A stretch of 64,000 bases of DNA from Pseudonocardia sp. (GCF_050250275.1 NZ_JBFWOY010000020.1:11155-75154); one strand, 5' to 3'. Shown: positions 15,696-51,923, counted from the first letter of the stretch. A program made the numbers and translations. The notes: generated by a model not told the origin, from the sequence alone.

Positions 15696-15746
15696 GCAGT
15701 TTCGTGTGCCGCGTTTAAGATGACCAGTCATATTCAAGGAGTTCAC

Positions 15747-25804: not shown

Positions 25805-26415
25805 CGGTGGACCTGCACGAACCTGACCCGGTCGCCGGGTGCGAGCAGGGCGGGCGGGTCGCGGTCGATGTCCCACATCGGCGCGTCGGTCCGGCCGAGC
25901 AGCTGCCAGCCGCCGGGTGTGGAACGGGGGTAGACGGCCGAGAACTCGTCCGCGAGCCCGACCGCCCCCGCGGGGACACGGGTGCGCGGCTCGTCGCGAC
26001 GCGGAACCCGGAGCCGCGGGTCGCCGTCGACGAGGTAGGCGAAGCCCGGCGCGAATCCGGCGAACGCCACCCGCCACTGCGATCCGGTGTGGGCGGCGAC
26101 CACCTCACGAGGGGACAGACCGGTGCGGGCGGCGATCTCGTCGAGGTCGGGCCCGTCGTAGACGACGGGGATCTCCACGGGGCCGGCCGCGCGTGTCGCG
26201 GCGGCCTCGGCCGGGGGGAGGGCGGAGACGGTGCGGCGCAGCGCCCCGAGGTCGGCGCCGGGTCCGGTGACGACGAGGACGGTCCGCGCGGCGGGGACGA
26301 CGTCGAGCACCTCGGGCAGGGCCGCGGCGCGGACGGCCGCGGCGAGGGCGACCGCGTCGTCGAGGGTGTCGACCTCGAAGAGGACGGCGGCGTCCCCGCA
26401 GGCCAGCGCCCTCAC
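25801..26415 (-). CDS. pxpB: 5-oxoprolinase subunit B (KipI/allophanate hydrolase subunit 1)
   Basis: [34 protein letters not shown] and [15 protein letters not shown]. The start is uncertain (GTG 26415 or GTG 26481). Confidence 0.85.
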
Positions 26416-26470
26416 GACCCGCGCACCGCGGTCGGCCCGCCGGTCGCGCCCACCGGTCGCGGAGCCGGGC

Positions 26471-27250
26471 TCACGGCGCACCCGGCGAGCCCGGCAGGAA
26501 CGCCGCCACGGTGACGCCGGCACCGTCGAGGGCGGCACGCACCGCCGCGGCCATCTCGACGGCCCCGGGGGAGTCGCCGTGCACGCAGACCGACTCGCCG
26601 CGGACGGTGACGTCGGCGCCCGACACGCTGCGCACCACGCCCTCGGAGACGATCCGCAGCACCCGGCGGGCCACCTCCTGCGGGTCGTGCAGCACCGCAC
26701 CCGGCTCGGAGCGCGGCACCAGGGCAGCGTCCGGGGTGTAGCCGCGGTCGGCGAACACCTCGGGGACGGCCCGCAGCCCGGCGGCGTCGGCCGCGCGCAG
26801 CAGGGCGGAGCCGGGGAGGCCGAGGATCGGCAGGCCGGGGTCGTAGTCGCGGACGGCGGCGACGATCGCGCCCGCCTGCCCCTCGTGGTGGACCGCGGTG
26901 TTGTAGAGGGCGCCGTGCGGTTTGACGTAGCGGACGCGGGTGCCGGCGACGCGGCACATGCCGTCGAGCGCGCCGAGCTGGTAGACGACGTCGTCGGCCA
27001 GCTCGGCCGGGGCGACGTCGACGAACCGGCGCCCGAACCCGGCGAGGTCGCGGTACCCGACCTGGGCGCCGACCACGACACCGTTGCGGGCGGCGGCGGC
27101 GGTGGTGGCGCGCAACGTCGACGGGTCCCCGGCGTGGAAGCCGCAGGCGACGTTGGCCGAGGTGACGAGGCCGAGCATCGCCTCGTCGTCGCCGAGCCGC
27201 CAGCGCCCGAAGGACTCGCCGACGTCGGAGTTGAGGTCGATGGCGGTCAT
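26471..27250 (-). CDS. pxpA: 5-oxoprolinase subunit A (LamB/YcsF family)
   Basis: [15 protein letters not shown]...[13 protein letters not shown]...VKPHGALYN is the diagnostic LamB/YcsF N-terminus. Confidence 0.92.
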
Positions 27251-27305
27251 CTCCGGATCCTGGCCGACGACGCCCGCCCCCGCACCGCCGGGACCGCCCA
27301 CGGGC

Positions 27306-30214: not shown

Positions 30215-30532
30215 TCAGACGGTACCGACGGGCTGGCCGAGCGCCTCGGTGAGCAACCGGCGGACACGCTCGTCGGGCGCGGTGTAGTAGACGAACGTGC
30301 CCTCGCGACGACCCTCGACGAGCCCGGCGAGGCGGAGCTTGGCGAGGTGCTGGCTGACGGCGGCGGGCTGGGACCCGACGAGCTCGGCGAGGCAGGCCAC
30401 GTTGGTCTCACCCTGGAGCAGCGCCCACAGGATCTTGATCCGGGTGGGGTCGGCGAGCAGGCGCAACGAGTCCGCGGCCCGCCGGACGTCGTCCGGGTCG
30501 GGCATCTCGAAGCCTGCTATGCCGTCGTGCAC
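30215..30532 (-). CDS. ArsR/SmtB family transcriptional regulator
   Basis: LRLLADPTRIKILWALLQGETNVACLAELVGSQPAAVSQHLAKLRLAGLV. It has a single Cys and no ELCVCDL motif or alpha5 DxHx10H ligand set. Confidence 0.88.
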   Translation of the reverse strand: MHDGIAGFEMPDPDDVRRAADSLRLLADPTRIKILWALLQGETNVACLAELVGSQPAAVSQHLAKLRLAGLVEGRREGTFVYYTAPDERVRRLLTEALGQPVGTV

Positions 30533-30630: not shown

Positions 30631-32370
30631 TCACCGACCGCTCGACCAGGCCGCCCACAGCGCGGCGTACCGCCCGCCCGCGGCCAGTAACTCCGCATGG
30701 CTGCCGAGCTCGACGACCTTGCCGCCGTCGAGGAGCAGCACGGCGTCGGCGTCGGCCGCCTGGGTGAGCCGGTGGGCTACCACGAGCGCGGTTCGTCCGC
30801 CCAGCGCCCGCTGCGCCGCGGACTCCAGGACGCGTGCGCCGGCGCTGCCCGCCTCGGCGGTGGCCTCGTCGAGGATCGCGACCGGTGGATCGGCCAGGAC
30901 GAGCCGGGCGAGAGCCAGCTGCTGGGCCTGCACGGCGGTCAACGCCGAGCCGCCCGCGCCCACCACGGTCTGCACGCCGTCGGGGAGGGCGTCGACCCAG
31001 TCGAGCGCACCGACCCGGTCCAGAGCCGCCCGCAGCTGCGCGGCACCCGCGTCCGGGTCGGCCAGGCGCAGGTCGTCGGCCAGCGGGCCGGCGAACACGT
31101 GCACCTCCTGGGTGACCAGCGCGACGGCCCCGCGGAGCGCGCCGTCGGGCGGTGGCGGGTCCAGCCGGAGCGTGCCACGGTCGGGCTGGTGCACCCCGGC
31201 GACCAGCTTGGCCAGCGTCGTCTTGCCCGCACCGCTGGCGCCGACGACGGCGAGCCGGGCGCCGGCGGCGATGTCCACGTCGACACCGGTGAGCACGTCC
31301 GGCCCGTCGCGATAGCCGAAGGCCACCGCCTCGACCTGGACGCGGGCCGGTGCCGCACCGCGCACCGGCGCCGGATGATCCTGCTCCGGCAGGTCGGCGG
31401 TCCCGACGATGCGCGCCAGACCGGCGGCCGCGGCCTGCACGGTCTGCAGCAGGAACAGCACCTCGTTCAGCGGTCCGAACAGGCCGATGAAGTAGAGCGC
31501 GGCGGCGCTGGCCGTCCCGATCGACACCGTCCCGGAGCGGACCAGCAGGAACCCGACGACCAGCACGAGGGCGAGGCCGACGAACTCGGCCAGGTTGAGC
31601 CGCCCGAAGAACCCGTTCTGCAGGCGGACCACCCGCAGCGCGAGGTCGACGACCCGCTGCGAGCGCTGCCGGACCAGCTCGGTGTGCCGCCCGGCGAGCC
31701 GGAACGCCCGCACCGTCGCCACGCCGACCGTGCTGTCCAGCAGCTGCTGCTGCTGGGCACCGCCCGCGATGCGCTGCTCGGCGTAGAGGGGGGTGGCGCG
31801 ACGCAGGTACCACCGGGCGGTGAGCGCCTGGATCGGCACCGCGGCCAGCGCGGCCAGCAGGAACCGCCAGTCCAGGACGGCCAGCCCGACGAACGTCAGT
31901 ACGATGATCAGCCCGTAGCGGGCCAACGCCGGTACGCCCTCGCGGACCGCCTCGCCGACCTGGGCGACGTCCTCGGTCACCCGGGACCCGAGGTCGCCCG
32001 CGCCGGCCGCCTCGATCCGCTCCAGCGGCAGCCCGAGTGCGCGGTCGACGAGCCGTTCCCGCAGCCGGGCCAGCACGACCTCGCCGACCTGTGCGGTCTG
32101 GGCCACCCCGAGCGCGGCGAGCAGGCCCTGCACGACGGCGACACCGACCAGCCCGACGGCCGGCCAGGTCACCGCATCGGGCCCGCCGCCGTCGACGACC
32201 AGGTCGATGATGCGACCGAGCAGTGGCGCGACCAGCAGGCCTGCGGCGGCGCCGCCGGCCAGGGCCGTCACCGCGAGGACGGCGCGGGTCCGGTGCGGGC
32301 GCAGCAGCTCGCCCAGCATCCGACGGGTGCGGGTCGGGGTGGCGACCGGCAGCAGTTCGCGGTCGGTCAC
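30631..32370 (-). CDS. ABC half-transporter (exporter fold), catalytically competent NBD with degenerate signature motif
   Basis: 579 aa from GTG 32370 (GTGA overlap with the upstream gene). Walker A is GASGAGKTT, the Q-loop is VTQE, Walker B is ILDEAT and the H-loop is VAHRL. The signature position reads LTAVQ instead of LSGGQ. Confidence 0.9.
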   Translation of the reverse strand: MTDRELLPVATPTRTRRMLGELLRPHRTRAVLAVTALAGGAAAGLLVAPLLGRIIDLVVDGGGPDAVTWPAVGLVGVAVVQGLLAALGVAQTAQVGEVVLARLRERLVDRALGLPLERIEAAGAGDLGSRVTEDVAQVGEAVREGVPALARYGLIIVLTFVGLAVLDWRFLLAALAAVPIQALTARWYLRRATPLYAEQRIAGGAQQQQLLDSTVGVATVRAFRLAGRHTELVRQRSQRVVDLALRVVRLQNGFFGRLNLAEFVGLALVLVVGFLLVRSGTVSIGTASAAALYFIGLFGPLNEVLFLLQTVQAAAAGLARIVGTADLPEQDHPAPVRGAAPARVQVEAVAFGYRDGPDVLTGVDVDIAAGARLAVVGASGAGKTTLAKLVAGVHQPDRGTLRLDPPPPDGALRGAVALVTQEVHVFAGPLADDLRLADPDAGAAQLRAALDRVGALDWVDALPDGVQTVVGAGGSALTAVQAQQLALARLVLADPPVAILDEATAEAGSAGARVLESAAQRALGGRTALVVAHRLTQAADADAVLLLDGGKVVELGSHAELLAAGGRYAALWAAWSSGR

Positions 32371-34055
32371 CCCAGCACCACGTCTCGGTAGCGGGCCCGG
32401 TCGGCCAGGAGCCGGTCGTGGCGGTCGAGCGCGGTGACGCGGCCGCCGTCCACGAGGGCCACCCGGTCGGCGACGGCCAGCAGAGCGGGGCTGCTGGTCA
32501 CCACCACGGTGGTCCGGCCGTGGCGCAGGGTGCGCAGTCCGGTGGCGATCTCGGCCTCGGTGACCGAGTCCACCGCTGTGGTCGGGTCGTGCAGCACCAG
32601 CACGGGTGGGTCCGCGGCGAGCGCCCGGGCGAGCGCCACCCGTTGGCGTTGCCCACCGGAGAGCGTCCGTCCACGTTCGGCGACGACGGTGTCGGCCCCG
32701 TCCGCGAGCGCGTCGACCACCTGGTCGGCCCGCGCGGCGGCCAGCGCCGGGGTGAGGTCGCGTTCGGCGGGGGCGGCGGCGCCGACGTTGGCGCGCACCG
32801 TGTCCGCGAACAGCTCCGCGTCGTGGGCCGCGACCAGCACCGCCTCGCGGGCGGACTCGGGTGCGTAGTCGGCCAGCGGTACCCCGTCGAGCCGTACCGA
32901 CCCGTGTTCGGGGTCCGCCTCGCGGGCGAGACAGCTCAGCAGGGCCAGTGCGTCGGCCGGGTCGGCTGCGACGATCCCGAGGAGCTCGCCCGCCCGGACG
33001 TCGAGGTCGAGCCCGGTCAGCGAGCCGTGGCGCAGGTCGGCCACGTGCAGGGCACCGTCGACCCGGGTGGGCGGCGGGGCGCTCCCGGCGCCGACCGCCG
33101 CCGGTGCGCCGAGCAGCTCGGCGATCCGCCGTGCCGACGCCCTGGCCTGCGCGAACCGTTCGTTGACCCAGCCCAGCTCCTGCAGCGGGTCGACGAGGAA
33201 CTGGGCCAGCCCGACGGCGGCCACGAGCTGCCCGGTGCTGATCTGGTCCGCGGCCGCCAGCCGGCCACCGACCAGCGCGATCACGGCGAGGAACGTGCCG
33301 TTGACGATGAGCACGGTCCCGGAGAACCAGGCCTGGCTGCGGGTGGCCCGCAGGGTGGCCGCCAGCGAGTCGGCGCTGGTCCGGGCGTAGCGGCGGACCG
33401 CGGCGGGCTCTGCCCGCAGGCCTTTGAGCACCCGGATGCCCGCGACCAGGTCGGTGGCGGTGCCCGCGGCCTGCGCGGCCCGTTCCTGCTCGGCCTCGCT
33501 GCGCCGCTCGATGGGCCGGCCGAACAGGTGGATCAGGTAGAGCACCGGTGGCGTGCCCAGCAGGATGAGCAGCCCGAGCGGCACCGAGATCCGCAGCAGT
33601 GCCACCGCGGCGACCAGCAGCGCGGCGAGGGCCGCCAGCCCGAGCGGCAGCCCGAAGTTGATCAGACCGACGCGTTTGGTGTCGGAGGTGGCGATCGAGA
33701 CGAGCTCGCCCGGCAGGCGGCCCCTCTCGGCGCCGCCGGCCGGGGCGAGCAGGCGGCGGGCGATGAGCAGCCGCAGACGCTGGTCGGCGCACACGTCCGC
33801 GATCCAGGCCTGCCGGGCGCCGAGCCGGTAGCAGACGGACAGGAAGGCGAAGTCCAGGCCGAGCACGGCCAGCCAACCGAGCAACGCCGCCGGGTCCCCG
33901 GTCCGCAGGGCGGTGTCGATCACCACCCCGACCAGCACCGGGACCAGCACCTCGCCGATCTGGTGGCCGCCGAAGCAGAGGGTGGCGAGCCCGACCCGGC
34001 CCCGGAAGGCGCCGATCGACCCGGTCAGGACCGACCGGCCGGAGGACGCGGTCAT
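32367..34055 (-). CDS. ABC half-transporter (exporter fold) with degenerate Walker A, Walker B and H-loop but canonical LSGGQ
   Basis: 562 aa from ATG 34055 (ATGA overlap with the NRPS stop). The Walker A position reads [15 protein letters not shown] with no GK[ST]. The signature is LSGGQRQR, the Walker B position is VLVLHDPT, and the H-loop position is VVTSSP. Confidence 0.9.
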
Positions 34056-37000
34056 GTGAGGCCACCTTCCGTGCGGTCGTCCTGTCCGGGGCTGCCCGGT
34101 CCGGCGACCGCGCGGACGATGCCGCGCAACGCCTCGAACCACAGCTCGGCCAGGCTCGGCACCTCACCGGCGGCGAAGACCGCCGCCGGCCATTCCCAGG
34201 AAGCGTGCAGCTCGGGCCGCCCGTCGACGTCGACCGCGAGCACGTCGAGCACCAGCGGATGCCCGGCCGGCATGGCGTCGTCCCGACCGCCCGTCAGCGG
34301 GTCCAGCCCCGCCGGCGTCTGCCAGTCGCCCCCGTCCCCGGCGCCCTCCGCGTAGCGCCCGAGGTAGTTGAACTGCAGCTCGGGCTCGGCTGCGCCGGCG
34401 AGCTGGGGGCCGGCCTGGGGGTCGAGGTGGCGCAGCACGCCGTAGCCCAGCCCGCCGTCGGCGACGGCGCAGAGCTGCTCGCCGACCCCACCGACGATCC
34501 GGCGCACCTCGTGGGGGTCGGCGGCCAGCACGGCGGACCACGCGGTGGGCCCGACCGGCAGGTACACCGGGAAGGCCGTGGTGAACCAGCCGACGGTCCG
34601 GGTGAGGTCGACGTCTCCGACGTGCTCCTCCCGGCCGTGCCCCTCCAGGGCGACCAGCGTGCCGTCGCCGGGGAGGCGCCCGGTGCGGCGGCGCCACTCG
34701 GCGGCGGCGACCGCCAACGCGGCGAGCAGGACGTCGTTGACCGTGGCACGCAGGAGGGCCGGGACGGACGACAGCAGTGGTGTCGTCCAGTCGGCCGGCA
34801 GCACCAGGGAGTGCTCCCGGATGGTCGTGGCGGTGTCGCGACCCGGGTCGAGGGGGGTGCGGGCGAACCGGCCGGCCGCCGCCTGCGCGGTGGCCCGCCA
34901 GTGCGGCAGCTCCCCGGCCCGGGCACCGGTGCGTCCGGCGTCGGCCAGCCCGCGGGCCCAGGTGCGGAACGACGTCCCGACGTCGGGCAGGGCGATCGGC
35001 TCGCCCGCGCGGTGGCGGGCCCACGCCTCGGCGAGGTCCTCGGTGAGGATCCGCCACGACACCCCGTCGACGACCAGGTGGTGCGCGACGAGCAGCAGGA
35101 TCCCCGGGGCGGCCGGTCCGGCGTCGAGCAGCACCGCCTGCGCCATGACCCCGCGGTCGGGGTCGAGGCGGGCGGCGGCCTGCAGCCGCTGCTCCTCGAC
35201 GACGGTCCCGACGTCGGTGCCGGCCGGCAGGTCGGCCACCGACAGCAGGTCGCCGGCCCGGACGGTGCCCGGCTCGGGGACCTCCAGCTCCCAGCGTGCC
35301 GTCTCGCGGTGCAGCCGGGCGCGCAGCAGGTCGTGGTGGTCGAGCAGGGCCTGCAGGACGGGCAGGAGCGCCGGGGCGTCCACCCCGGCCGGGGTCTGCA
35401 GGGTCACCGCCTGGTGGAAGGCGCCGATCGAGCCGCCCGCCGCCGCGGTCGACCCGGCGAGCCATCCCATGATCGGGGTGGCGGGCAACCGGCCCGTCCC
35501 GGCGCCGTCCACGTCCACCCGAGCCGCGGTCGCCGGACCGGAACCCAGCGCGGCCAGGGCCTCGACGGTGCGTGCCGTGCGCACGTCCCGCGGCCGCAGC
35601 ACCAACCCGTGCCGGCGGGCCTGCGACACCAGCGCGATCGAGCTGATGCTGTCGCCGCCGAGTGCGAAGAAGTCGTCGTCGATGCCGACGTCCGGCACCC
35701 CGAGCAGCCGCCCGATCAGGTTGCACAGGCTCCGCTCGGCCTCGGAGCGCGGCGCGCGGTGCTCCCGCGTCCCGGTGAGCTCCGGAGCCGGCAACGCTGC
35801 GGCGTCGAGCTTGCCGTTGACGGTCAGCGGCAGCTCGTCCAGCACGTCGAGGGTGGTGGGGACCATGTGTGGCGGTAGCTGCTCGGCGAGGTGCGTGCGC
35901 ACCGCGGCGACCAGCGCCGCCGGGTCGGCGGGCCCGGCCGCGACCAGGTAGCCGGCCAGGTGGGCGATCCGGGCCTCCCCCCGCCGGTGCACCGTCACCG
36001 CCGCCTGGGCCACCCCGGGGTGGCGTTCCAGGGTGGCGACGATCTCGCCCGGCTCCACCCGGTAGCCCCGGATCTTGACCTGGTCGTCGGTGCGGCCGAG
36101 GAAGTCGATGTTCCCGTCGGCCCGCGCGACGACGAGGTCGCCGGTGCGGTACATGCGCCCGCCCGCGGCGGCGCCGTACGGGTCGGCGACGAACCGCTCC
36201 GCCGTCGGCCCCGGGCGGTCGTGGTAGCCGCGCGCCAACCCGGCGCCGGCGATGTAGAGCTCACCGGGCGTACCGGGCGGGACGGGGCGCAGCGCGCTGT
36301 CGAGGATGTAGGCGCGGGTGTTGGTGACCGGTGTGCCGACCGTCGGTGTCACGCTGTCCTCGGTGCCGCCACCCAGGGTGTTGATCGTGTACTCGGTGGG
36401 GCCGTAGAGGTTGTAGCCGACCACCCCCTCCGCGGCGGCCAGCTGCGTCCACACCGACTCGGTGACCGCCTCCCCGCCGAGCAGGACCAGCGGCGGTCGG
36501 TGCGGGCCGTCGAGCAGGCCGCTGTCGAGCAGTGTCCGCGCGTAGGTGGGCGTCACGTTGACGACGTCGATGCGCTGCTCGGCGCAGTAGGCGACGAGCT
36601 GCTGGGCGTCGCGGCGCAGCTCCTCGTCGCACACGTGCACCTCGTGGCCCTCGACGAGCCAGAGCAGCTCCTCCCACGACATGTCGAAGGAGAACGACAC
36701 GGTGTGCGCGATCCGCAGCCGGCGGCCCCCGGCCCGGTCCAGGGTCGGGCCGAAGATCTTCGCCTGGTGGTTCACCAGCATGTTCGTCAGCCCCCGGTAC
36801 GGGGTGAGCACGCCCTTGGGGAGCCCCGTGGAGCCGGAGGTGTAGATCAGGTACGCGGGGTGCTCCAGCCGCCCCGGCGTACCGGGCGCGAACGGGCCGA
36901 GCTCGGCGGGGGTGAGCGCGGCCGGTGACTGCCGCGCGAGCTCCGCGGCGGTCTCCCCGCCGTGCAGCCCCACCACCGGTGCGCCCACCTCGGCGGGCAG

Positions 37001-40000
37001 CCGCTCCGCGCCGGGCCTGTCGGCCAGCACGCACACCGGCCGGGCGTCGGCGAGCATCACGGCCCACCGGTCGGCCGGGTGGTCGAGGTCCAGCGGCAGG
37101 TAGGCCGCGCCGGTGCGCAGCACCGCGAACAGCGCCACCACCGTGTCCAGCGACCGCGCCATCGCCAGCGCGACGGTGCGCTCCGGCCCGGCACCGCGCG
37201 CCAGCAGCAGCCTGGCCAGCCGGTTCACCCGGGCGTCGAGCTCGGAGAAGGTCAGCTGCTCGCCGTCGCACACCAGCGCCACGGTGTCGGGTCGCGCCGC
37301 GGCGCGCTGCGCGAGCAGCTCGGCGACCGTCGCCGGGGGCACCGGGTGGCCGGTGGCGGCCCAGCCCTGTTCGAGCGCGGCCCGCTCCGCCGGGGCGAGC
37401 AGCTGCAGCCGGGCCATCGGCCGGTCGGTGTCCGCGGCCAGTTCGTGCAGGACCGACAGGAACGCCTCGTACAGCCGCCGCGCCCGCTCGACCGGGACGC
37501 GTCGTTCGTCGTACTGCAGCCGCAGCGCGAGCTCCGCGCCGGGGAAGACCTGCAGGGACGCCGCGAAGTGGGTGCGCGCCTCGACCGACTCACCGGTGCC
37601 GGTGATCCGCAGCCCACCCGGCGCCCGCCCGTCCGCACCGGGCGGGAAGTTCTCGAACACGAACAGCACGTCGAACAGCTGTTCCACACCGGCCAGCGAC
37701 TGCACCTCGGCCAGCCCGAGGTACTGGTGCCCGAGCAGGTCGGCCTGCTCACGCTGGTGGGTGAGCAGCACGTCGCTGATGCAGTGCGTGGGTGACCAGC
37801 GCACCCGCACCGGCACGGTGTTGATGAACAACCCGACCTGGGAGTCGATGCCGGGGACGTCGGCGTCGCGGCCGGACACCACGGCACCGACGACGACGTC
37901 GTCGCGTCCGGTGAGGGTGCCGAGTGCGATCGCCCACGCCCCGCTGACCAGGGTGTTCAACGTCAGCCCGCGGTGGCGTGCCGCTGCCCCCAGCATGCCG
38001 GTGAGCTCCGCCGGGACCGTCCCGGTCAGCGCCGCGGGGGCGGTGGGGGCGGCATCGGCGGGCAGGGCGGCGCCGAGCAGGGTGGGCTCGGTCAACCCCG
38101 CCAGCGCCGCCCGCCAGGCCGCCCGGGTCCGGCCGGTGTCCTGACGCGACAGCCAGCCCAGGTACTCCCGGTAGGACGGCACCGGCAGTGGGTCCCGGCC
38201 GTCGCCGCGGGCCTCGATCAGGTCGAGGAGGTCGTCGAACAGGACGGGCAGCGACCAGCCGTCGGCCACCAGGTGGTGCAGGGTGACGACCACCCGGTGC
38301 GCGGCGTCCGGCTGCTCGGGCCGGTCGCCGGTGAGCAGGGCGACCCGCAGCAGCGGCGCCTCGTCGAGCGCGAAGGCGTGCCGTCGTTCCTCCCGCGCGG
38401 CGCGGGCGGTGGTGGCGTCGTCGGCCGGGTGCAGCACGCGCAGCGGGACCTCGACCGTGCGGGCCACGGCCTGGACGAGCCCGCCGTCGAGGGTCTCGTG
38501 GAACGAGGCGCGCAGCGCGGGATGGCGGGCGGTGAGCGCGGCGAGCCCGGCGCGCAGCTGCTCACCGGTCAGCGGGCCGGCCAGCTCCAGGACGTACTGC
38601 ACGATGTAGCCGTCGGGGTCGGCGTCGCTGTGCAGGTGGTAGCGGGAGTGGAAGTACATCCCCTGCTGCAGCGGCGTCAGCGGCCACACGTCGGCCAGGC
38701 CGCCGGTGACCGTCGCGGCGAGCGCGTCGACGTCGGGCTGGGCCAGGGTCACGAGCGGGAAGTCGGCGGGTGACGGGCCCCAGCCGCCGGGCGCCGGGGC
38801 GTGCTCGGCGAGGGCCGCCAGCGCGGCCGCCCAGCGCTGCGCGATCGCGGTCACGTCGGCCTCGGCGAGCACCCCGTCGGGCCAGGCGAACGTGGCTGAC
38901 AGGGACGGGCCCGCGGCACCGTCGGTCACCGCGGCGTTGATCTCCAGCGGGTAGCCTGCCGCGGTGTCCGGGTCGGCCCGTTCGCCCAGCGCCGGGCGTT
39001 CCGGGGCGAGGCCCCAGTCCTGGCCGTCGGGGTGCTCGCCGGTGCCGAACCGGCCGAGGTAGTTGAACAGGACGGACGGGGTGGCGGTACCGGCCCAGGC
39101 CTGCGCCCGGTCCGGGTGCAGGTGGCGCAGCACCGTGTAGCCGATCCCGCGGTCGCGGCGTGCTTCGATCGCGGTCCGGACCCGCTTCGCGGCCGCCGCC
39201 ATCGCGTGGCCGCCGTCGAGGAACTCCGCCCACGCCACGGGCCCCGGGTCGAGCCGGACCGGGGCGATGGTGGTGAACCAGCCCACGGTCCGGGACAGGT
39301 CGAGGGTCTCGTCGACCGCGGCGCCCTCCCGGCCGTGGCCCTCCAGGTCGACCAGCACCGCGCCCTCGTCGCGGTCGCCGCGCAGGGCCACCGCGAGCGC
39401 GGTGAGCAGGACGTCGTTGACGGTGCCGCCGAACGCGGCCGGGACCGCGCCGAGCAGCCGCCGGGTGACCGCGGCGGGCACCGCCACGGTCGACGACCGG
39501 GTGGTGCCGACCGTGTCGCGGGCCGGGTCCAGCGCCCGGTCCCCGACCGGGCACACGTTTCGCGGGTCCAGCTCGTCGCGCCAGCGGGGTAGCTCGGCCA
39601 GCCGCTCGTCGCGACCCGCCTCCCGGTGCAGCGCCTCGGTCCAGTCGCGGAACGAGGTGGGCACCGGCTCCGCGGCGAGCCGACGGCCGTCCTGGTGCTG
39701 CTGCCACAGCTGCGCCAGGTCCTCGCCGACGATGCGCCAGGACACGCCGTCGACCACGATGTGGTGGGCGACGAGCAGCAGCCGGCCGCGCCGGGTCGGC
39801 CCGGCGTCGACGAACACGGCCTGCACCATCACCCCGCGGTCGGGGTCGAGCCGGCCGACCGCCTCGTCCTCGCACGCGTCGAGCAATGCGGCGAGCGCGG
39901 CCGGGTCGTCGGGCGCGGGGACGGTCCGCAGCAGGTCCGCGGCCGCGACGGTGCCGGGCTCGGGAACGTGCAGTGCCCAGTCGTCGGCCCGGTCCAGCCG

Positions 40001-43000: not shown

Positions 43001-46000
43001 GGTGAGGTCGAACCGGCGGGTGCGGTCGGCGTGCGCGATGTCCCCGGCCCGCGCCGCGGCCTCGGCGGGGGCGAGGCCGGACAGGTCGTGCTCGGTCACC
43101 GGGTCGTCGGCGGCGGCCCGCACGACCTGGTGGACGGTGCCGTCACCGTTGTCGACGAACGCGCAGCGCAGCGTCGGGTGCCGCAGCTGCAGCAGCTGCG
43201 TCGCTGCGCGCAGGCGGGCCGCGTCGACGCGATGGTCCAGTTCGAAGGTGGTCTGCCCGGTGTAGACGTCGAGCGCCCCGGAGTCGTCGAAGACGGCCTG
43301 GAAGTACAGCCCGGACTGCAGCGGGGAGAGCGGCCAGACGTCGGTGAGGTCGGCGAACCGCTCCCGTAGCGAGCCGAGCGTGGTGAGGTCGAGCGGTACC
43401 AGTTCGAGCGGCGCGACCGGCGGCCGGGCCTGCTCGGGGGTGTCCTCGACGGTGGCGACGAGGGCGAGCGCCTCGGGGGTCCGGCTGGTGAAGACCTGCC
43501 GCGGGGTGAGGACCAGACCGCGTTCCCGGGCCCGGCCGACCAGGGTGACCGAGCTGATGCTGTCGCCGCCGAGAGCGAAGAAGTCGTCGCCGGCTCCGAC
43601 GTCGGTCGCGTCGAGCAGCTCGGCGAACAAGGCGCACAGCACCCGCTCGGGCCCGGTCCGCGGAGGGCGGCTGCCGCCGCCGGTGTAGACCGGCGCCGGG
43701 AGGGCCCGGACGTCCAGCTTGCCGTTCGTGGTCAACGGCAGCTCGTCGAGGGCGACGATCGAAGCGGGGACCATGTGGGCGGGCAGGTGCAGCGCCAGGT
43801 GGCTGCGGATCTCGGCGGCGGGGGCGCCGGCGCGCGGGTCGGCGGGAACCAGGTAGGCCGCCAACCGGGCGAGGGCCGGGCCCCCGCGCGACGACGTGCT
43901 GTCGACGACCACCGCGGCCTGCGCGACCAGGGGGTGCGCCTCCAGTGCGGCGACGATCTCACCCGGCTCGATCCGGTAGCCGCGGATCTTGACCTGGTCG
44001 TCGGTGCGGCCGAGGAAGTCGATGTTCCCGTCGGGGCGCCGTCGGGCCAGGTCGCCGGTCCGGTACATGCGTCCGCCCGGTTCGGTCGCGTAGGGGTCGG
44101 CGACGAACTTCTCGGCGGTCAGGCCGGCCCGGTCGTGGTAGCCGCGGGCCAACCCGGCGCCGGCCAGGTAGAGCTCGCCGGGCGAGCCGTCGAGCACGGG
44201 GCGCAGCGCGCTGTCGAGGATGTGGACCCGGGCGTTGTGCACCGGCCGCCCGACCGTCGGGGTGGTGCTGTCGCCGACACCGCCACCGAGCGCGTTGACG
44301 CTGAACTCGGTGGGCCCGTAGAGGTTGTAGCCGTCGGTGCGCGGCGCCTCGCGCAGCGCGGTCCAGACGGAGTCGGTCGCGGCCTCGCCACCGAGCAGCA
44401 CCAGCGACGGTACGTGCCCGCCGTCGAGCAGGCCGGCGTCGAGCAGGGCGCGGGCGTAGGTCGGTGTCACGTTGAGGACGTCGAGGCGCTGCGCGCGGCA
44501 GTGCTCGACGAGGCGGTGGGCGTCGCGGCGCAGCTGCTCGTCGCACAGGTGCAGCTCGTGCCCGTCGAGCAGCCAGAACAGCTCGTCCCAGGACATGTCG
44601 AAGGAGAACGACGTGGTGTGGGCGACCCGCAGCCGGCGGCCCCCGGTACCGGCGAGGGCGCGCGGGACGATCTCGGCGCGGTACTCGGCCAGCATGTTGG
44701 TCAGGCCGCAGTGCGGGGTGAGCACACCCTTGGGGGTGCCGGTGGAGCCGGACGTGTAGATCAGGTAGGCGGGGTGGTCCAGCCGGCCGGGTGAGCCGGC
44801 CGTGAACCCTGCCAGGTCCGTCGACGACGGCGGCCCGGGTGGCAGTGCGGCCAGCTCGGCGACGATCCCGGGGCTGTCGAGCCGGATCGTCGGCACGTCG
44901 AGGGCCGGCGCGTCGAGGTCGGGGCCGTCGGCGAGCGCCACGACGCAGACCGGCCGGGCGTCGCCGACCATCGCGGCCAGCCGCGCGGGCGGCAGCTCGA
45001 GGTCCAGGGGCAGGTACGCGGCGCCGGTGCGCAGCACGGCGAACAACGTCGCCACCATGTCGGTGGAGCGGGGCAGGGCCAGGGCGACGACGCGCTCCGG
45101 GCCCGCGCCGCGCGCCAGGAGCAGCCGGGCGAGGCGGTCGACCCGCGCGTCGAGCTCGGCGAAGGTCAGCCGGTCGTCGCCGCACACGAGGGCCGTGCCG
45201 TGCGGGGTGGCCGTGGCCAGCGTCGCGAGGTGCTCGGCCACCGTGCGGTCGGGCAGGTCGCGCTCGCTGGCCGACCACGCCGCGCGCAGCGCCACCGGTT
45301 CGTCGTCGGTCACCACGTCGACCCGCCCGACGGGCTCGGCGGGTGCCGCGAGCAGCCGTCGCGTCGTCGTCGCCAGGCGGTCCAGCAGCGCCGTCGCCGT
45401 CGCCCGGTCCAGGACGTCGGGCCGGAACTGCAGGGTGAACCGCATCCGCGACTCCGGTGCGACGACCAGCGCGAGCGGGTAGTGCGTCGCGTCGGCGTAG
45501 TCGACGTAGCGGGCGCCCACCGCGTCGAGCACAGCCGGGTCCAGCTTCGGGAAGTTCTGCAGCACGAACAGGGTGTCGAACAACGGCTGCTGCCCGGCGG
45601 CGCGCTGGATCTCGGCCAGCCCGGCGTGCTCGTGGTCGAGCAGGGCCGCCCGGTCACGCTGGATCCGCTGCAGCAGGGCGCTCACGGGCTCGGCGAGGTC
45701 GAGCCGCACGCGAGCCGGCACGGTGTTCAGGAACTGGCCGATCGACCGGTCGCTGCCCGCCAGCTCGGGCGGCCGCCCGGCCACCGTGGTGCCGAAGACC
45801 ACGTCGGTCCGCCCGGTCAGCCCGCCGAGGGTGATCGCCCAGGCGGCGTTGAGGACGGTGTTGACGGTGACGCCGAGGGCGCGGGCGCCGGCGCGGACGG
45901 CGTCGTCGGCCTCCGCGGGCAGCTCCAGTTCGACGGTCGAGGGCAGGACGGGCGCGTCCACGGGGGCGGCCTGCCGGGCGCCGGCGACGAGCGTGCCGCC

Positions 46001-48505
46001 GTCCAGCCCCGCCAGCGCGTGCCGCCACGCGGCCGCGTCGGCCCGGTGGTCGCGGCCGGCCAGCCAGCGCGGGTGGTCCAGGTGCGACGGCGGGGCGGGC
46101 AGTCCCGGATCGGTGCCGTCGTGGCCGAGCAGCGCGAAGAGTTCCCGCAGGACGATGTGGTGCGACCACCCGTCCCACGCGGTGAGGTGCTGGGTGAGCA
46201 CCAGCCGGGACCGGCCACCGGGCAGGTGGGCGACGGCGATGCGGAACAGCGGCGGCGCGGCGAGGTCGAAGCGGCGGCCGCGGTGGTCCGCGGCGAGGGT
46301 GGCCAGGCGCTCCAGCGCGTGGTCGAGGGGCAGGTCGGTGAGGGTGACCTCTTCGACGGGGACGGTGGCCGTCGGCAGCACGACCTGCACGGGCTGCGGA
46401 ACGCCGTCGGCGGTCAGCCCGGCGCGCAGGAACGGGTGGCGTTTCAGCAGCGTCGCGCACGCGCGGCCGAGCAGGTCGACGTCGAGTGGGGTGGCGAACT
46501 CGAAGTCGTGCTGTGCGGTGTAGGGGTCGACGTCGCCCGAGCCCTCGTAGACCGACTGGAAGTACAGCCCGGACTGCAGCGGCGCGGCCGGGAAGACCGC
46601 GTCCGTGCCGACGCCGTAGCGGGCCGCGGCCCGGGCCGCGACCTGCGGGTCGAGCAGCGGGGCCGCACCGCCGGAATCCCGGGTCGCCCGGTCCTCCGGT
46701 TGCGCGGCGGGGAACCGGGCGGCCAGCGCTTCGGCGGTGCGCAGCTCCATCAGCTCCCGCACCCGCACCCGCAGTCCGTCCTCGTGGGCGCCGCGGATCA
46801 CCCGGACCGCGGTGATGCTGTCGCCGCCGAGTGCGAAGAAGTCGTCCTCCGGGCCCACCTCGGGCAGGTCGAGGGCCTCGGCCAGCCGCCGGCACCAGCG
46901 GCGCTCGGCGTCGTCGCGGGCCGGCCGGCCACCGCCCGCCTCGAGCTGCGGCGCGGGCAGGGCGTCGCGGTCGAGCTTGCCGTTCGGCGTCATCGGGAGC
47001 CCGCCGGCGATCGGCACCAGCACGGTGGGGACCATGTGCGCCGGCAACGAGTCGGCCAGCCGGGCCCGCACGTCGGCCGGCGGGTCCGCCGACGCGTCGA
47101 GCACCACGTACCCGACCAGCATGCGGCGGCCCGGCTGGTCCTCGCGGACGACGACCGCGGCCTGGGTGACGCCGGGCTGCGCCAGCAGCGCGGTCTCGAT
47201 CTCACCCGGCTCGATCCGGTAGCCACGCAGTTTCACCTGCTGGTCCGCGCGCCCGAGGAAGTCGAGGGTCCCGTCGGCCCGCCACCGGACCCGGTCGCCG
47301 GTGCGGTACATCCGGGAGCCGTCGACCGCGAACGGGTCGGCCACGAACCGCGACGCGGTCAGCCCGGCGCGGCCGCGGTATCCCCTGGCCAGCCCCCGTC
47401 CCGCGATGTACAGCTCACCGACCTCACCCACCCCGACCGGACGCAGCCGCTCGTCGAGCACGAAGGCGTGCGTGTTGGGGTCGGGGCGGCCGATCGGGGC
47501 GGGCCCGCTCCACCCGGGCTCGGCCGTCCACAGGGTGGAGTTCACCGTCGCCTCGGTCAGCCCGTAGGCGGTCACCACCCGCAGGGGGCCGGTCCAGCGC
47601 CGCAGCACCTCCGGCGGCACCGTCTCGGTGCCGACGACCAGCACGGCGCCGTCGGGTAACCGGCTCTCCGGCGGCAGGGCCGCCACCAGCGAGGGCGGCA
47701 GGATCATGTGGGTGATCCCGTTGGCGCACAGGTAGTCGGTGAGCTCGGGGCCCGCGACGCGGCGGTGGGCCGGCACCAGGACGACGGTCCCGCCGACGCA
47801 CAGCGACATCGTCAGGTCCCAGACCGCGACGTCGAACCCGATCGAGGCGAACTGCGCGACCCTGCTCCGGGCGTCCACCCCCAGCCGGTCCACCGCGGTC
47901 GCGACGAGGCTGCCGATGCCCTCGTGCGTGAGCAGCGCGCCCTTGGGGCGACCGGTCGAGCCCGACGTGTAGATGAGGTAGGCGGCCCGGTCCAGGTCGA
48001 TCGGGCCACCCACCTCCGCATCGTCGAGGTCGGCACCCGATCGCCCGGCGAGCTCGGCCACCGTGGCGGCGGCGTCCACGCGCACCGCCGCCGTCGCGGA
48101 CGGCAGCTCGCCCGCCAGGTCGGTCGTGGTGAGGACCAGCCCGGCGCCGGAGTCGTCCAGCAGGTAGGCGACCCGCTCGGCCGGATGGTCCAGATCGACC
48201 GGCAGGAACACGGCTCCTGCCTTGAGCACCGCGAGCACCGCGACCACCAGCTCGGGCGAGCGGGGCAGGGCGAGGCCGACGACGTCCTCGGCCCCCACCC
48301 CACGCGCCCGGAGCAGGCGGGCCATCCGGTTGGCACGGTCGTTGAGCTCGTGGTAGCTCAACGACTCGTCCTCGCAGACGACAGCGGTCGCCGTGGGCCG
48401 TTCCGCGGCGCGGTTCTCGAACAGCCGTGACCACGGCAGTTCGTCGACCTCCCGCAGGGGACTGCGGGCCCACGGCGTCAGCTCGTCGATGCTCACTGCG
48501 GTCAC
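34052..48505 (-). CDS. non-ribosomal peptide synthetase, 4 modules: A-T / C-A-T / C-A-T-E / C-A-T-E (4817 aa)
   Basis: Four [14 protein letters not shown] adenylation cores and four [18 protein letters not shown] carrier motifs. Three C domains (active-site motifs at 46169-46189, 42911-42931, 38258-38278). Two E domains (HH[IL]VVDGVSW at 39737-39766 and 35054-35083, plus EGHGRE, RTVGWFT and FNYLG). GTG 48505 is in frame and overlaps the stop of the binding-protein gene (GTGA). The 252 upstream codons of ORF 34052..49261 are shadow sequence. Confidence 0.97.
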
Positions 48506-49530
48506 GGCTTGGCGTCCAGCTTCTCCAGCTCGGGAACGACCTGGTCGAGGGCGTAGGGGATGCTCAGCACGGTGTTGAAGGTGATCGCCGCACCCGGGAA
48601 CGGGGCCTGCGTGTAGTCGAAGTAGGACACGCGGCCGTTGCGGACGACGTCGAGCCGGTTGTAGATGGGGTCGTTCTGCAGGGTGGCCAGGAGGTCGGGG
48701 TCGGAGGTCCAGGCGAGGCGGTCGACGTCGAGCAGCGTGAACTCCTCGGCGCTGACGTTCGCGAGGTTGTCCTGTACGCGCGGGGCGAGCCACGGGGGCT
48801 GCGTCGAGAAGCCGAGGTCGGCGAAGAACCGGGCCTTGGGGTCCTGCGGCGAGAAGACCCCGTAGGTGCCCGCCTCGGCCGTCGCCATCACGAGCATGGT
48901 CTTCGTGGCCCACTGCGGGTGAGCCGTGCGGACAGCGGCGAGCTTCTGCTCCACGCCTGCCACCAGGTCCTTGGCCTGCGCCTCGCGGCCGAGCGCGCGG
49001 CCGATCGTCACCGTCGTCTCCTGCCAGGGGGCACCGAAGGCGTCGTAGGCGCCCGGGTGGGCGACGGTGGGGGCGATCGCCGACAGCTTGTCGTACTCGG
49101 AGCGGTCCAGGCCCTCGTACAGGGCGAGGATCAGGTCCGGACGCAGGGCGGCGACCTTCTCGAAGCTGATCTCGCCGGCGTTCGCGACGATCTCGGGGGT
49201 CGCCCCCTTCGCGGCCGCGGTCGCCCACGGGAAGATCGCGCCCGGCTGCTCGTCGAACCATTCCGTCGTGCCGACCGGCTGGACACCGAGGGCGAGGACG
49301 GCGTCCTGGTCGCTCCAGCCGATGGTGACCACGCGCTGCGGCGAGGTGGCGATGGTGGTGGAGCCGAGGGCGTGGTCGATGGTCACCGGGAAGCCGGGAC
49401 CGGCCGGCGGGGCCGACGGGGACGAGGCGGGCGACTGCGCTGTGCCGCAGCCGGCGAGGGCCACGGCGAGCGCCGCTGCGAGCGGCAGCAGCGTCCGTCG
49501 TCGAAGTGTTCGGGGCATGCGGATACTCAC
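48502..49530 (-). CDS. siderophore/iron-complex ABC substrate-binding lipoprotein (FecB/FhuD-like, cluster A)
   Basis: Signal peptide with lipobox [25 protein letters not shown] and [12 protein letters not shown] are typical of iron-siderophore binding proteins. GAGGAG lies 7 nt upstream of GTG 49530; ATG 49518 is the alternative. Confidence 0.9.
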
Positions 49531-49586
49531 GGTTGTGCTCCTCGGAGGTCGATCAGGGACGTTCTTGGGCGCTGAAGCGCCCGGGA

Positions 49587-49814
49587 TCAGCGGGTCGGCG
49601 CGGCCGGCTCGGAGCGCTGCCGCAGGCTGCGGGGGCGCAGGTCGTCCCAGTGTTCGTCGATGTGGTCCAGGCACTCCTGGCGGCCGGCTGCGGACAGGAC
49701 CACGCGCCAGCCCTCGGGGACCGCCGCGAACGCGGGCCACAGCGAGTACTGCTCCTCGTCGTTGACCAGTACGTGGAAGGTGCCGTCCGGGTCGTCGAAC
49801 GGGTTGGTGGACAT
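49587..49814 (-). CDS. MbtH-like protein
   Basis: [39 protein letters not shown]...[20 protein letters not shown] is the canonical MbtH signature (NxExQxSxWP...GW). Confidence 0.95.
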
Positions 49815-49842
49815 CCGTGTCTCGCCTTCTGTCGTGGGTGGG

Positions 49843-51108
49843 TCAGACCAGGGCCGAGCTGCGCTCGGCGATCGACTGCACGATCTCCCCACTACGCACG
49901 GCGATGTTCGACAGCAGCGTCGACGACAGTCCATGGGTGTGTTCGGTCGCGCCCTGGACGTAGATTCCCGCGCGCAACGCCTCGTCGGTGGCCACCCGGT
50001 AGTCGCGGTTGATGCTCAGGCGGCCGGTGTCGTCGCGCAGGCAGGATCCGGTGAGGTCGCCGAGGAGGGCGCACGGGTCGGAGGGCCGGTATCCGGTCGC
50101 ATAGACCACGAGGTCGGCTCTGACGGCTTCGCGCCCACCGTCGAGCATCGACTCGAGGACCAGTTCGACGTGGTCGCGGCCGGCCACCACGTCACCGATG
50201 CGGCTGACGTTGAGGAACCGCAGCCGTTCGCGCCCGCTGATCTTCTCGTGGTAATGGCGGCGGTAGAGGGACTCGATGAGCTCGGGGTCGACGACCGAGT
50301 AGTTGGTGTTGGCGTGGTAGCCGAGAATCATCTGTTTGACTTCGGGGGGTGCTCCGAAGAAGTCGTCGACGGCGCCCGGGTCGAACACGCGGTTGGCGAA
50401 CGGTGTGTCGTCGGCGGGGCTGTAGCCGTAGCGGTTGAAGACGGCCCACACCTCAGCGGACTCGAACCTGCGGTGGAAGTGGTCCACCGCCTCGGCTGCG
50501 CTCTGCCCGGCGCCGACGACGATCACGCGACGCGGGTCGATCGGCTGGTCGGTGCGGGTGAGGAGGTCGCGCGTGTGCCAGATCCGCTCTCCCGGGACCA
50601 CCCCGTCGGGCAGGTTCGCGGTGAGCCCGGTGGCGACCACGACGTTACGGGTGCGCATCGTCGTCCCGCCCGACGTCCTGACGTCGAGGAACTCGGGTGC
50701 GTCGGGTACCGGATCGATCGAGGTCACGGTCGTGCGGTAGTCGACGTCGTCGGCGAATCGCCCGGCGACCCATTCCAGGTAGTCGTGGAACTCCAGACGT
50801 GTCGGGAACGCGCTCCCGTAGTTGATGAAGTCGATCAGCCGGCCCCGGTCGTGGAGGTAGGACAGGAAGCCGTACGGGCTGACGGGGTTGCGCAGGGTGG
50901 CGAGGTCCTTGAGGAAACTGATCTGCATCGTCGCGTCTTCGAGCAACATGCCGCGGTGCCATCCGAACGTGGGCTGCCGTTCCACGAACCGGGTACTCAA
51001 CCCCGCGCCAGGGGTGCTGCTGTTGTGTTCGGCGACGGCGACGGCGAGCGCCAGGTTCGATGGTCCGAAACCGACGCCGACCAGGTCGAACGACCCACAT
51101 CGAGACAT
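49843..51108 (-). CDS. L-ornithine/L-lysine N-monooxygenase (SidA/IucD/PvdA family)
   Basis: [16 protein letters not shown] (FAD GxGxxN variant), [23 protein letters not shown] (NADPH) and DLVVYATGY. Confidence 0.93.
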
Positions 51109-51132
51109 GCACGCGCTCCCTTTGGGTGAGGA

Positions 51133-51151
51133 CTAGGCTACCTTTGCCTAA
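51133..51151. promoter_or_regulatory. IdeR/DmdR-type iron box candidate
   Basis: ctaggctacctttgcctaa; the reverse complement TTAGGCAAAGGTAGCCTAG matches 13/19 positions of the remembered consensus TTAGGTTAGGCTAACCTAA, with both outer TTAGG/CCTAA arms preserved. It is centred in the AT-richer 66-bp gap between the divergent N-monooxygenase and SIP genes. Confidence 0.5.
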
Positions 51152-51174
51152 GGGAAGGCTTACTTCAATAGCCC

Positions 51175-51873
51175 GTGTGGGCGGACACACAGCGGAGTCG
51201 TTTCGGCCCCGCGCGGTCAGGAACGGGCGGTCTCCGTACGGTGCGGCGCGTCGAGGGTGACCGGGTGACCGTCGACGTCGTCGTCCACGAGGGTGGCGCC
51301 GCGACGGCGTGGGCGCGCCGCGGCCGGCCGGGCGACCGGCTCGCGGTGACCCACCAGAACAGCTGGTTCACCCGGCCCGACGGGGTCGGCTGGCAGGTGC
51401 TGCTCGTCGACACCACCGGCCTGCCCGCGGCGGCGCGCATCGCGGAGGAGGCGCCCGCGGGGATGCGGACGATCGTCGTCGCGGAGGTCCCGTCGACCGC
51501 GGACGAGCAGGAGCTGGCCGGGGCCGAGGTCACGTGGGTGCACAACCGCCAGGTCGTGCACGGGGGGTCGCGGCTCGAGCGCCTGGCCCGGGAGCTGGTG
51601 CTGCCCGAGGGGCCCGGGTACGTCTACGTCGCGGGTGAGGCGGCGGCGACCCGTGCCGTCCGCACGTACCTGCGTCGTGAGCTGCGGTTGCCCGCGGAGT
51701 CGTACGGGGTGATCGGCTACTGGCGCCGTGACGCGGTCGCGTGGGCGGAGCGGGTGGCGCGGTCGGACGTCGATCTCGGCGAGTTGTGGCGGCGCTCCGA
51801 GGCCGAGGCGGCCGACGGGCAGGAGGCCCTGGACCTGTACGAGGAGCGGTTGGGGGGCGTCGGCCTGCTGTGA
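51175..51873 (+). CDS. siderophore-interacting protein (ferric-siderophore reductase family), apparently lacking the N-terminal part of the FAD-binding barrel
   Basis: LRTVRRVEGDRVTVDVVVHEGGAATAWARRGRPGDRLAV resembles RxYTxR...H..GPAs.WA...pGD, and the NAD-binding half is VLLVDTTGLPAAARI...VYVAGEAAATRAVR. Only about 20 residues precede the RxYT-like motif, versus roughly 70-90 in the SIPs I remember. Confidence 0.7.
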   Translation: MWADTQRSRFGPARSGTGGLRTVRRVEGDRVTVDVVVHEGGAATAWARRGRPGDRLAVTHQNSWFTRPDGVGWQVLLVDTTGLPAAARIAEEAPAGMRTIVVAEVPSTADEQELAGAEVTWVHNRQVVHGGSRLERLARELVLPEGPGYVYVAGEAAATRAVRTYLRRELRLPAESYGVIGYWRRDAVAWAERVARSDVDLGELWRRSEAEAADGQEALDLYEERLGGVGLL

Positions 51874-51923
51874 AGAAATCTTCTGGTTGCGTATCTGCGT
51901 GAGTGCGCATATAGAGTGAGTGG

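Follow-up and report, generated by a model that had tools for sequence, protein, structure and literature searches.

What does the nonribosomal peptide synthetase (NRPS) locus at positions 30631-51873 of a Pseudonocardia sp. sequence (GCF_050250275.1 NZ_JBFWOY010000020.1:11155-75154; the whole 64,000-nt stretch, ~75% GC, is referred to below as the window) produce, and how could a synthetase that ends without a release domain assemble and free its product? The gene content supports a hydroxamate-siderophore cluster built around an NRPS, whose genes are translationally coupled and whose single divergent promoter gap contains an iron box. For the chemistry we favor, with about even confidence, an iron-repressed locus in which 2 condensation (C) domains of a separate clade, recognizable by the motif HLxxWDGWS, couple the chain to the side-chain (delta) nitrogen of hydroxyornithine and the last residue releases itself by cyclization; the nature of the product, its control by iron and the mode of release are what we infer from the sequence.

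Open reading frames (ORFs), called with the GC content of third codon positions (GC3) as a guide and assigned to families with Pfam, are arranged as follows:

30631-32370, minus strand: ATP-binding cassette (ABC) half-transporter 2, transmembrane plus nucleotide-binding domain (ABC_membrane + ABC_tran), GTGA overlap with half-transporter 1
32367-34055, minus strand: ABC half-transporter 1, the same 2 domains (ABC_membrane + ABC_tran) in an exporter fold, start overlapping the stop of the NRPS (ATGA)
34052-48505, minus strand: tetramodular NRPS, 4817 aa, 14,454 nt, a single ORF
48502-49530, minus strand: siderophore-binding lipoprotein, Peripla_BP_2, with signal peptide and lipobox LAGC
49587-49814, minus strand: MbtH-like protein, 75 aa, helper of adenylation (A) domains (PF03621, E 1.9e-29)
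49843-51108, minus strand: L-ornithine N5-monooxygenase, 421 aa (PF13434, lysine/ornithine N-monooxygenase, E 1.6e-104)
51109-51174, between the strands: divergent promoter gap, 66 bp, 56% GC versus 70-78% around it
51133-51151: iron box 1, IdeR/DmdR type, TTAGGCAAAGGTAGCCTAG on the minus strand, 13/19 to TTAGGTTAGGCTAACCTAA
51149-51167: iron box 2, IdeR/DmdR type, adjacent to box 1, TGAAGTAAGCCTTCCCTTA, 13/19 to TTAGGTTAGGCTAACCTAA
51175-51873, plus strand: divergent siderophore-interacting protein (SIP), ferric-siderophore reductase family by Pfam, start codon uncertain
51924-53819, plus strand: P-type ATPase, P1B-4-like, SPC and HELST motifs present, HMA domain absent

This gene order, from the monooxygenase through the MbtH, lipoprotein and NRPS genes to the 2 ABC genes, had been proposed with the same coordinates in a preliminary description of the locus, and ORF calling and Pfam confirmed every item. 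The description had also proposed one coupled operon. The last 4 genes are indeed joined by 4-nt overlaps that can be read directly at the predicted positions (GTGA at 48502-48505 between lipoprotein and NRPS, ATGA at 34052-34055 between NRPS and ABC, GTGA at 32367-32370 between the ABC genes); the monooxygenase/MbtH and MbtH/lipoprotein junctions are gaps of 28 and 56 bp, respectively. An AAGGGAG Shine-Dalgarno sequence lies 7 nt ahead of the monooxygenase ATG, and all ORFs of the locus are intact with strong GC3 bias.

The locus unites an NRPS and an ornithine/lysine N-monooxygenase in one cluster, the combination on which the NRP-metallophore rule of antiSMASH is built (PMC12971057), and adds the lipoprotein and the SIP for ferric-siderophore uptake and utilization. 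The best solved relatives of the lipoprotein are annotated as periplasmic, iron-transport or iron-compound binding proteins (4mdy, 7fhm, 4pm4 and 4hmo). Ornithine N-hydroxylases also serve N-N bond pathways and are known false positives in metallophore prediction (PMC12971057), so N-hydroxyornithine might here feed a piperazate- or hydrazine-type peptide, or the cluster might be silent or decaying. We give this reading very little credence. The piperazate/hydrazine pathway was rejected given that no KtzT-like or methionyl-tRNA synthetase (MetRS)-like gene is present among the Pfam-scanned window genes, whereas siderophore uptake genes are; the lipoprotein, SIP and iron boxes speak for a siderophore; and the ORFs are intact and GC3-biased, with 60-95% amino acid identity across many genomes, which argues for selection on function.

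The 66-bp gap at 51109-51174 had been described as the only promoter-sized region, AT-richer than its surroundings and containing an iron-box-like palindrome, and both statements proved correct. When boxes were scored by the number of matches over 19 positions to the actinobacterial consensus TTAGGTTAGGCTAACCTAA, 3 of the 7 sites reaching at least 12/19 in the 64 kb fell inside the gap. The pattern TTAGG-N9-CCTAA with at most 1 mismatch occurs a single time in the 64 kb, at 51133-51151, versus 0.01 occurrences expected from shuffles, with the second 13/19 box adjoining it, and in most orthologous loci boxes scoring 13-15/19 precede the monooxygenase gene. Iron regulation of the operon is thus well motivated as a prediction from these motifs. 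Scans for sigma-70 promoters and intrinsic terminators returned nothing, a result that is uninformative for an actinomycete of 75% GC. The highest iron-box score of the window, 14/19, belongs to a site elsewhere (TGACGTCAGGCTACCCTGA, 4995-5013), between a PASTA/helix-turn-helix gene (4303-4980, minus strand) and a DUF3159 membrane-protein gene (5058-5735, minus strand), and may be due to chance.

The synthetase has the order A-T-C-A-T-C-A-T-E-C-A-T-E (T, thiolation; E, epimerization), that is, A1-T1-C1-A2-T2-C2-A3-T3-E1-C3-A4-T4-E2. Its A-domain codes were read by motif anchoring:

46964-48439, minus strand: A1, code DVWIVGAVNK, N5-acyl-N5-hydroxyornithine type
45278-46621, minus strand: C1, HLxxWDGWS clade
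43706-45247, minus strand: A2, code DMDNLGLVNK, hydroxyornithine type
42026-43360, minus strand: C2, HLxxWDGWS clade
40463-41995, minus strand: A3, code DMENLGLINK, hydroxyornithine
38741-40171, minus strand: E1, motifs HHxxxDGxSW, EGHGRE and FNYLG
37364-38710, minus strand: C3, ordinary C domain (HHLVADGWS), clustering with C domains that follow E domains
35798-37333, minus strand: A4, code DMENLGLINK, hydroxyornithine
34055-35500, minus strand: E2, terminal, all E motifs, nothing after it

Three features reported earlier are thereby upheld: 3 hydroxyornithine modules (DMDNLGLVNK, DMENLGLINK and DMENLGLINK), 2 E domains, which share 47% identity and both retain HHxxxDGxSW, EGHGRE and FNYLG, and the lack of a release domain, the protein ending T-E with no thioesterase (TE), reductase or terminal C domain. 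The starter module, by contrast, need not be left unassigned as it had been, its code DVWIVGAVNK being that of module 1 in NRPSs of the foroxymithine/salinichelin/erythrochelin type.

This assignment comes from comparison with 79 relatives, which were collected by a search with the back-translated C2 domain and whose architectures were mapped by tblastn and HMMs. Among them, DVWIVGAVN is the first A-domain code of the commonest Streptomyces architecture, C-A[DVWIVGAVN]-T-C-A[Ser]-T-C-A[DMENLGLIN]-T-C-A[DVFILGAVN]-T-C, in which the C domain before DMENLGLIN belongs to the HLxxWDGWS clade (26 loci in its 2 commonest forms), and also of variants with an Arg-like module 2 and an E domain (L004 and L082). 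DVFILGAVN is the module 4 code in 4-module Streptomyces NRPSs, and formyltransferase genes adjoin the Streptomyces-type NRPS in both loci whose flanks were read (L003 and L004). Salinichelin consists of N1-acetyl-N5-acetyl-N5-hydroxyornithine, D-Arg, N5-hydroxyornithine plus N5-formyl-N5-hydroxyornithine and is made by the 4-module SlcE, whose second module includes an E domain and which closes with a C domain (PMC5776446); the core foroxymithine NRPS, fxmE, likewise has 4 modules (PMC9546628). Because of this code identity and the colinearity with the salinichelin and foroxymithine synthetases, the A1 code points to N5-acyl-N5-hydroxyornithine as its substrate. Since A2-A4 are of the hydroxyornithine type, again by code identity with colinear known systems, all 4 residues would therefore be derived from ornithine. 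The code strings themselves gave no matches in the literature.

The 2 acceptor-side C domains C1 and C2 are the most informative part of the protein. We surveyed all NRPS ORFs in the 80 loci (the window included) for the motif H-[LV]-x-x-W-D-G-W-S and found 93 domains, 92 of which immediately precede an A domain whose code is DM[ED]N.GLIN; the motif is missing from every C domain ahead of any other A code in the 80 loci. In a neighbor-joining tree of representative domains, those with the motif are monophyletic, include C1 and C2 of the window and group together regardless of whether a T domain or a separate E domain precedes them, whereas C3 falls outside, among ordinary C domains that follow E domains. 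Tandem domains of this kind are restricted, among the 80 loci, to 12 loci of a Pseudonocardia/Patulibacter family to which the window belongs. In foroxymithine and erythrochelin, the side chain of residue 3 is attached through a Ser-CO-N(OH) unit, and exochelin MS has hydroxamates in its backbone. For qinichelin, nuclear magnetic resonance shows Ser-4 joined to the delta-N of hydroxyornithine-5, an isopeptide bond that the authors attribute to C domain 5 (10.1101/163170). The simplest reading of this comparison is that an HLxxWDGWS domain ahead of a free-hydroxyornithine module forms the delta-N bond. The metallophore genome-mining paper does not state a function for the clade (PMC12971057).

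Current annotation offers another role for these domains. In scabichelin-like NRPSs, the equivalent domain, ahead of the ornithine-type module 3, receives the dual label from antiSMASH and is given as 'CD' in Phytohabitans genome mining (PMC7692728), and the N-terminal motifs of C1 and C2 resemble DCL and dual types; C1 and C2 could thus be dual epimerization/condensation domains that leave residues 1 and 2 in the D configuration and join them by ordinary peptide bonds. We find this distinctly improbable. Four of the 93 HLxxWDGWS domains follow a separate E domain (among them those of L004 and L082, both salinichelin-like, and of the erythrochelin-like L016), where a dual function would be redundant, and in salinichelin all ornithine units are L, the only D residue, Arg, having its own E domain (PMC5776446). 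Because some of these domains follow a dedicated E domain and the salinichelin ornithines are all L, the dual label fits poorly.

A conventional chemistry for the same siderophore locus, which we consider rather unlikely, would have C1-C3 all form alpha-peptide bonds, the side-chain hydroxylamines of residues 2-4 acylated by a remote transferase in a crosstalk of the EryM type, and the product released by a discrete hydrolase such as CchJ. EryM-type N-acetyltransferases indeed lie far from their biosynthetic gene clusters in Pseudonocardiaceae (bioRxiv 10.1101/2025.03.07.642089), coelichelin requires a separate thioesterase gene (PMC9854754), and the window NRPS has no release domain of its own. 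However, A2-A4 carry codes for free hydroxyornithine (DMENLGLINK type) rather than the acyl-hydroxyornithine codes DVWIVGAVN and DVFILGAVN of the same data set, C1 and C2 belong to a clade tied to a free-hydroxyornithine acceptor, the position that is delta-N linked in qinichelin (10.1101/163170), and the family shows no conserved hydrolase gene next to the cluster.

The pathway that we propose with delta-N coupling would run as follows. Under iron limitation, IdeR would leave the boxes and the operon would be transcribed, and the monooxygenase would convert ornithine to N5-hydroxy-L-ornithine. A1 would load N5-acyl-N5-hydroxyornithine, its acyl or formyl group supplied by a transferase encoded elsewhere, and A2, A3 and A4 would load free N5-hydroxyornithine. 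C1 and C2 would each couple the upstream carboxyl not to the acceptor's alpha-amine but to its delta-N-hydroxy nitrogen, creating 2 backbone hydroxamates; E1 would then invert residue 3, C3, of the post-E type, would make an alpha-peptide bond to residue 4, and E2 would invert residue 4, for a predicted L, L, D, D configuration. Release would proceed without a TE, the free delta-hydroxylamine of residue 4 attacking its own thioester to yield a cyclic hydroxamate. The product would be handled by the ABC heterodimer, the ferric complex bound by the lipoprotein and the iron freed by the SIP reductase. A T-E end has a precedent in scabichelin-type NRPSs, which end A/T/E (PMC7692728), and the qinichelin authors propose the same TE-less release, with the delta-hydroxylamine of the last hydroxyornithine attacking the thioester as in scabichelin (10.1101/163170). 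In 3 of the relatives (L012, L013 and L017), methyltransferase (MT) domains are embedded in A domains, mostly in modules fed by HLxxWDGWS domains (in L013 and L017 also in module 1), which is compatible with free alpha-amines in those modules.

Several observations weigh against this pathway. No formyl- or acetyltransferase, phosphopantetheinyl transferase, TE or hydrolase was found among the Pfam-scanned genes of the 64-kb window or beside the orthologues, and the flanks of the orthologous clusters, searched for acyltransferase and hydrolase genes, contain housekeeping genes only; the predicted A1 substrate is therefore left without a visible source. Acylation of the hydroxylamine may take place in trans or may be replaced by C-domain chemistry; EryM of the erythrochelin pathway is encoded remotely from its cluster, with homologues confined to Pseudonocardiaceae (bioRxiv 10.1101/2025.03.07.642089). 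The model predicts 4 hydroxamates, 1 above the requirement of Fe(III), and as E2 keeps every epimerase motif, there is no hint that it plays a role in release. The case for regulation consists of two 13/19 motif matches, and no FecCD permease or ATPase that could partner the lipoprotein lies close by. As for the clade, the 80 loci were recruited with C2 of the window, a sampling bias for which the other C domains of the same proteins served as internal controls; its link to delta-N coupling leans in part on the structures of foroxymithine and erythrochelin rather than on characterized enzyme sequences, and the clade may mirror shared descent of C-A units instead of regiochemistry.

Were the prediction to hold, the locus would yield a poly-hydroxamate chelator that is both new and highly polar. 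The [M+H]+ values expected are 563.3148 (acetyl) and 549.2991 (formyl) for the cyclized chain, 581.3253 and 567.3097 for the corresponding hydrolyzed forms and 521.3042 for a chain with no acyl group, each raised by 52.911 in the Fe adduct. A broader proposal, to which we give slightly less than even weight, is that the HLxxWDGWS domains are a dedicated hydroxamate-forming subtype now mislabelled as dual epimerization/condensation domains, and that their tandem use in the Pseudonocardia/Patulibacter family yields an all-ornithine siderophore. Most of its iron ligands would then be N-hydroxy-isopeptide bonds within the backbone, complemented by a cyclic hydroxamate at the terminus. Such a molecule, perhaps a tetrahydroxamate, would repeat the desferrioxamine design in peptide form and would depend little or not at all on a separate acyltransferase. 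If the prediction for the locus holds, 1 NRPS and 1 hydroxylase would offer a compact test bed for the way in which a C domain chooses a side-chain N-hydroxy nitrogen over the alpha-amine. Selection of the delta-N occurs in foroxymithine, erythrochelin, qinichelin and exochelin, and current annotation tools do not recognize a C-domain subtype for it; use of the HLxxWDGWS signature could sharpen structure prediction for many actinobacterial hydroxamate clusters.

How does the synthetase compare with known ones? It was set against salinichelin, foroxymithine, erythrochelin, scabichelin/albachelin, qinichelin and coelichelin as these are described, and matched none of them. With SlcE (salinichelin), FxmE (foroxymithine) and ErcD/EtcD (erythrochelin), the window NRPS shares 4 modules, accompanying monooxygenase, MbtH, lipoprotein and ABC genes, the lack of a TE, the codes DVWIVGAVN and DMENLGLIN and an HLxxWDGWS domain before a hydroxyornithine module. 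However, synthetases of this type usually have a starter C domain and always a terminal one, whereas the window NRPS has neither; they contain 1 HLxxWDGWS domain, compared with 2 in tandem plus 2 E domains here; and their order is acyl-hydroxyornithine, Ser or Arg, hydroxyornithine, acyl-hydroxyornithine, as opposed to an acyl-hydroxyornithine type followed by 3 hydroxyornithines. The terminal C domain, for cyclization and release, is a feature of the erythrochelin/foroxymithine/salinichelin family (PMC5776446), and a formyl- or acetyltransferase gene stands beside the NRPS in L003, L004 and the published slc cluster (PMC5776446) but not near the window NRPS.

The scabichelin/albachelin and qinichelin synthetases also lack a TE, scabichelin-type ones share the T-E end, and in both the C-terminal hydroxyornithine is proposed to self-cyclize and 1 delta-N backbone hydroxamate is made by a C domain. 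They differ in having 5 or 6 modules, with Ser, and a last A code of DAWEGGLVDK or DAQEGGLVD, in contrast to DMENLGLINK in A4; the scabichelin type has embedded MT domains, which the window NRPS lacks, and qinichelin also carries a catechol. Like the window NRPS, CchH makes a hydroxamate peptide, of N5-formyl-N5-hydroxyornithine (hfOrn) and hydroxyornithine, and has E domains and no integrated TE, coelichelin being regulated by DmdR; unlike it, CchH has 3 modules rather than 4, is used iteratively and incorporates Thr, with the hfOrn code DINYWGGIGK in place of the DVWIVGAVNK of A1. The coelichelin system further includes a formyltransferase of its own and a thioesterase encoded by a separate gene; a DINYWGGIG first module is seen only in the variant L012. 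In exochelin MS of Mycobacterium smegmatis, the hydroxyornithines are linked through the delta-N, placing the hydroxamates in the backbone, in a pentapeptide with beta-Ala and allo-Thr that involves 2 NRPSs (FxbB/C) and the formyltransferase FxbA. As for the expectation that the synthetase would match no characterized one, none with this domain and code order was found in the searchable literature, MIBiG being outside the search, and Pseudonocardia genome mining lists only other predicted siderophore clusters (PMC5183585). The locus is a genuine orphan member of the well-known actinobacterial class of hydroxamate peptide siderophores, with modest architectural variation. Its parts and chemistry are all known; what is distinctive is their combination, namely, no starter or terminal C domain, 4 ornithine-type modules, tandem C domains for hydroxyornithine acceptors, 2 E domains and a T-E end.

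The best match to C2 is in Pseudonocardia sp. SCN 73-27 (94% amino acid identity), followed by 7 to 10 other Pseudonocardia genomes or metagenome-assembled genomes (60-81%) and Patulibacter minatonensis DSM 18081 (54%). The A-T-C-A-T-C-A-T-E-C-A-T-E synthetase is shared by at least 8 Pseudonocardia genomes and by P. minatonensis; cultured carriers include P. yuanmonensis JCM 18055, P. terrae and Pseudonocardia sp. CA-107938. The identical NRPS with monooxygenase, MbtH and lipoprotein genes occurs in L005, L008, L009, L010, L011, L014 and L015, and exact copies of the monooxygenase are found on metagenome contigs with the same neighbors. The gene set is thus conserved and selected, not a one-off. 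The ABC pair and the SIP/ATPase pair are not attached in every relative, the flanks in other species being unrelated housekeeping genes. In P. minatonensis (L015; class Thermoleophilia), the same NRPS architecture and accessory genes are present at 49-68% amino acid identity with a shuffled gene order, which suggests horizontal transfer across classes. More distant Pseudonocardiales versions (L012, L013 and L017) have ~450-aa MT domains in 2 A domains (for example, L013:3866-5230 and L012:8363-9733); in L012, a C-A unit whose hfOrn code, DINYWGGIG, is of the coelichelin type stands in for the first module, and a module with a scabichelin-type hydroxyornithine code, on a separate protein, for the last.

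The preliminary description had further seen an iron-homeostasis neighborhood here; the divergent SIP and P1B-4-like ATPase are present as stated, but as a pair they are common only to the closest relative (L005), not to the family. The SIP is at most 232 aa long, with an FAD-binding domain match spanning 39 residues only. Its length is 202-210 aa according to other gene callers, a start that would enlarge the divergent region to ~156 bp. Either the start is placed wrongly or the protein may be a ferric-siderophore reductase with a shortened N-terminus. The ATPase contains IVASPCAVV and GHELSTVV, has no HMA match and scores above the TIGR01525 cut-off, and by its sequence appears P1B-4-like (SPC in transmembrane helix 4, HE(G)xT in helix 6 and no N-terminal metal-binding domain). 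For the ABC pair, searches of PDB and NCBIfam do not separate an exporter from an importer similar to IrtAB or YbtPQ, the fold being that of a generic exporter.

On the left, the locus is bounded by an ArsR/SmtB regulator gene (30215-30532, minus strand) and then a phosphoenolpyruvate carboxylase gene (27306-30095), and on the right by TetR, EamA and leucine-catabolism genes. Genes for ArsR/SmtB metalloregulators and P1B-4-type ATPases are usually adjacent; here, the regulator and the ATPase (51924-53819, plus strand) flank the 21-kb cluster at opposite ends, as though it had been inserted between them. The stretch 48000-52000, with the monooxygenase, MbtH and lipoprotein genes, has 70-72% GC versus 75-78% for the NRPS and the surroundings. 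The label "island" given earlier is not supported: mobility genes, an integrase among them, and genuine tRNAs are absent, Rfam gave nothing and the single ARAGORN match falls inside a gene. The flanks do vary between species. That match, an 85-nt tRNA-Ala(GGC) at 15878-15962 (minus strand) within a short-chain dehydrogenase gene (15720-16475, plus strand), is almost certainly a false positive, Rfam reporting nothing there.

Elsewhere in the window, a LamB/YcsF gene and 2 carboxyltransferase-subdomain genes (24956-27301, minus strand) form a 5-oxoprolinase operon of the PxpABC type directly upstream of the phosphoenolpyruvate carboxylase gene. At 5737-13201, small-molecule genes that have no relation to the siderophore are loosely grouped: a carotenoid-cleavage oxygenase (RPE65), a PadR regulator, a major facilitator superfamily transporter, a fusion of a hydrolase and a short-chain dehydrogenase/reductase, an aminotransferase and an EryCIII-like glycosyltransferase.

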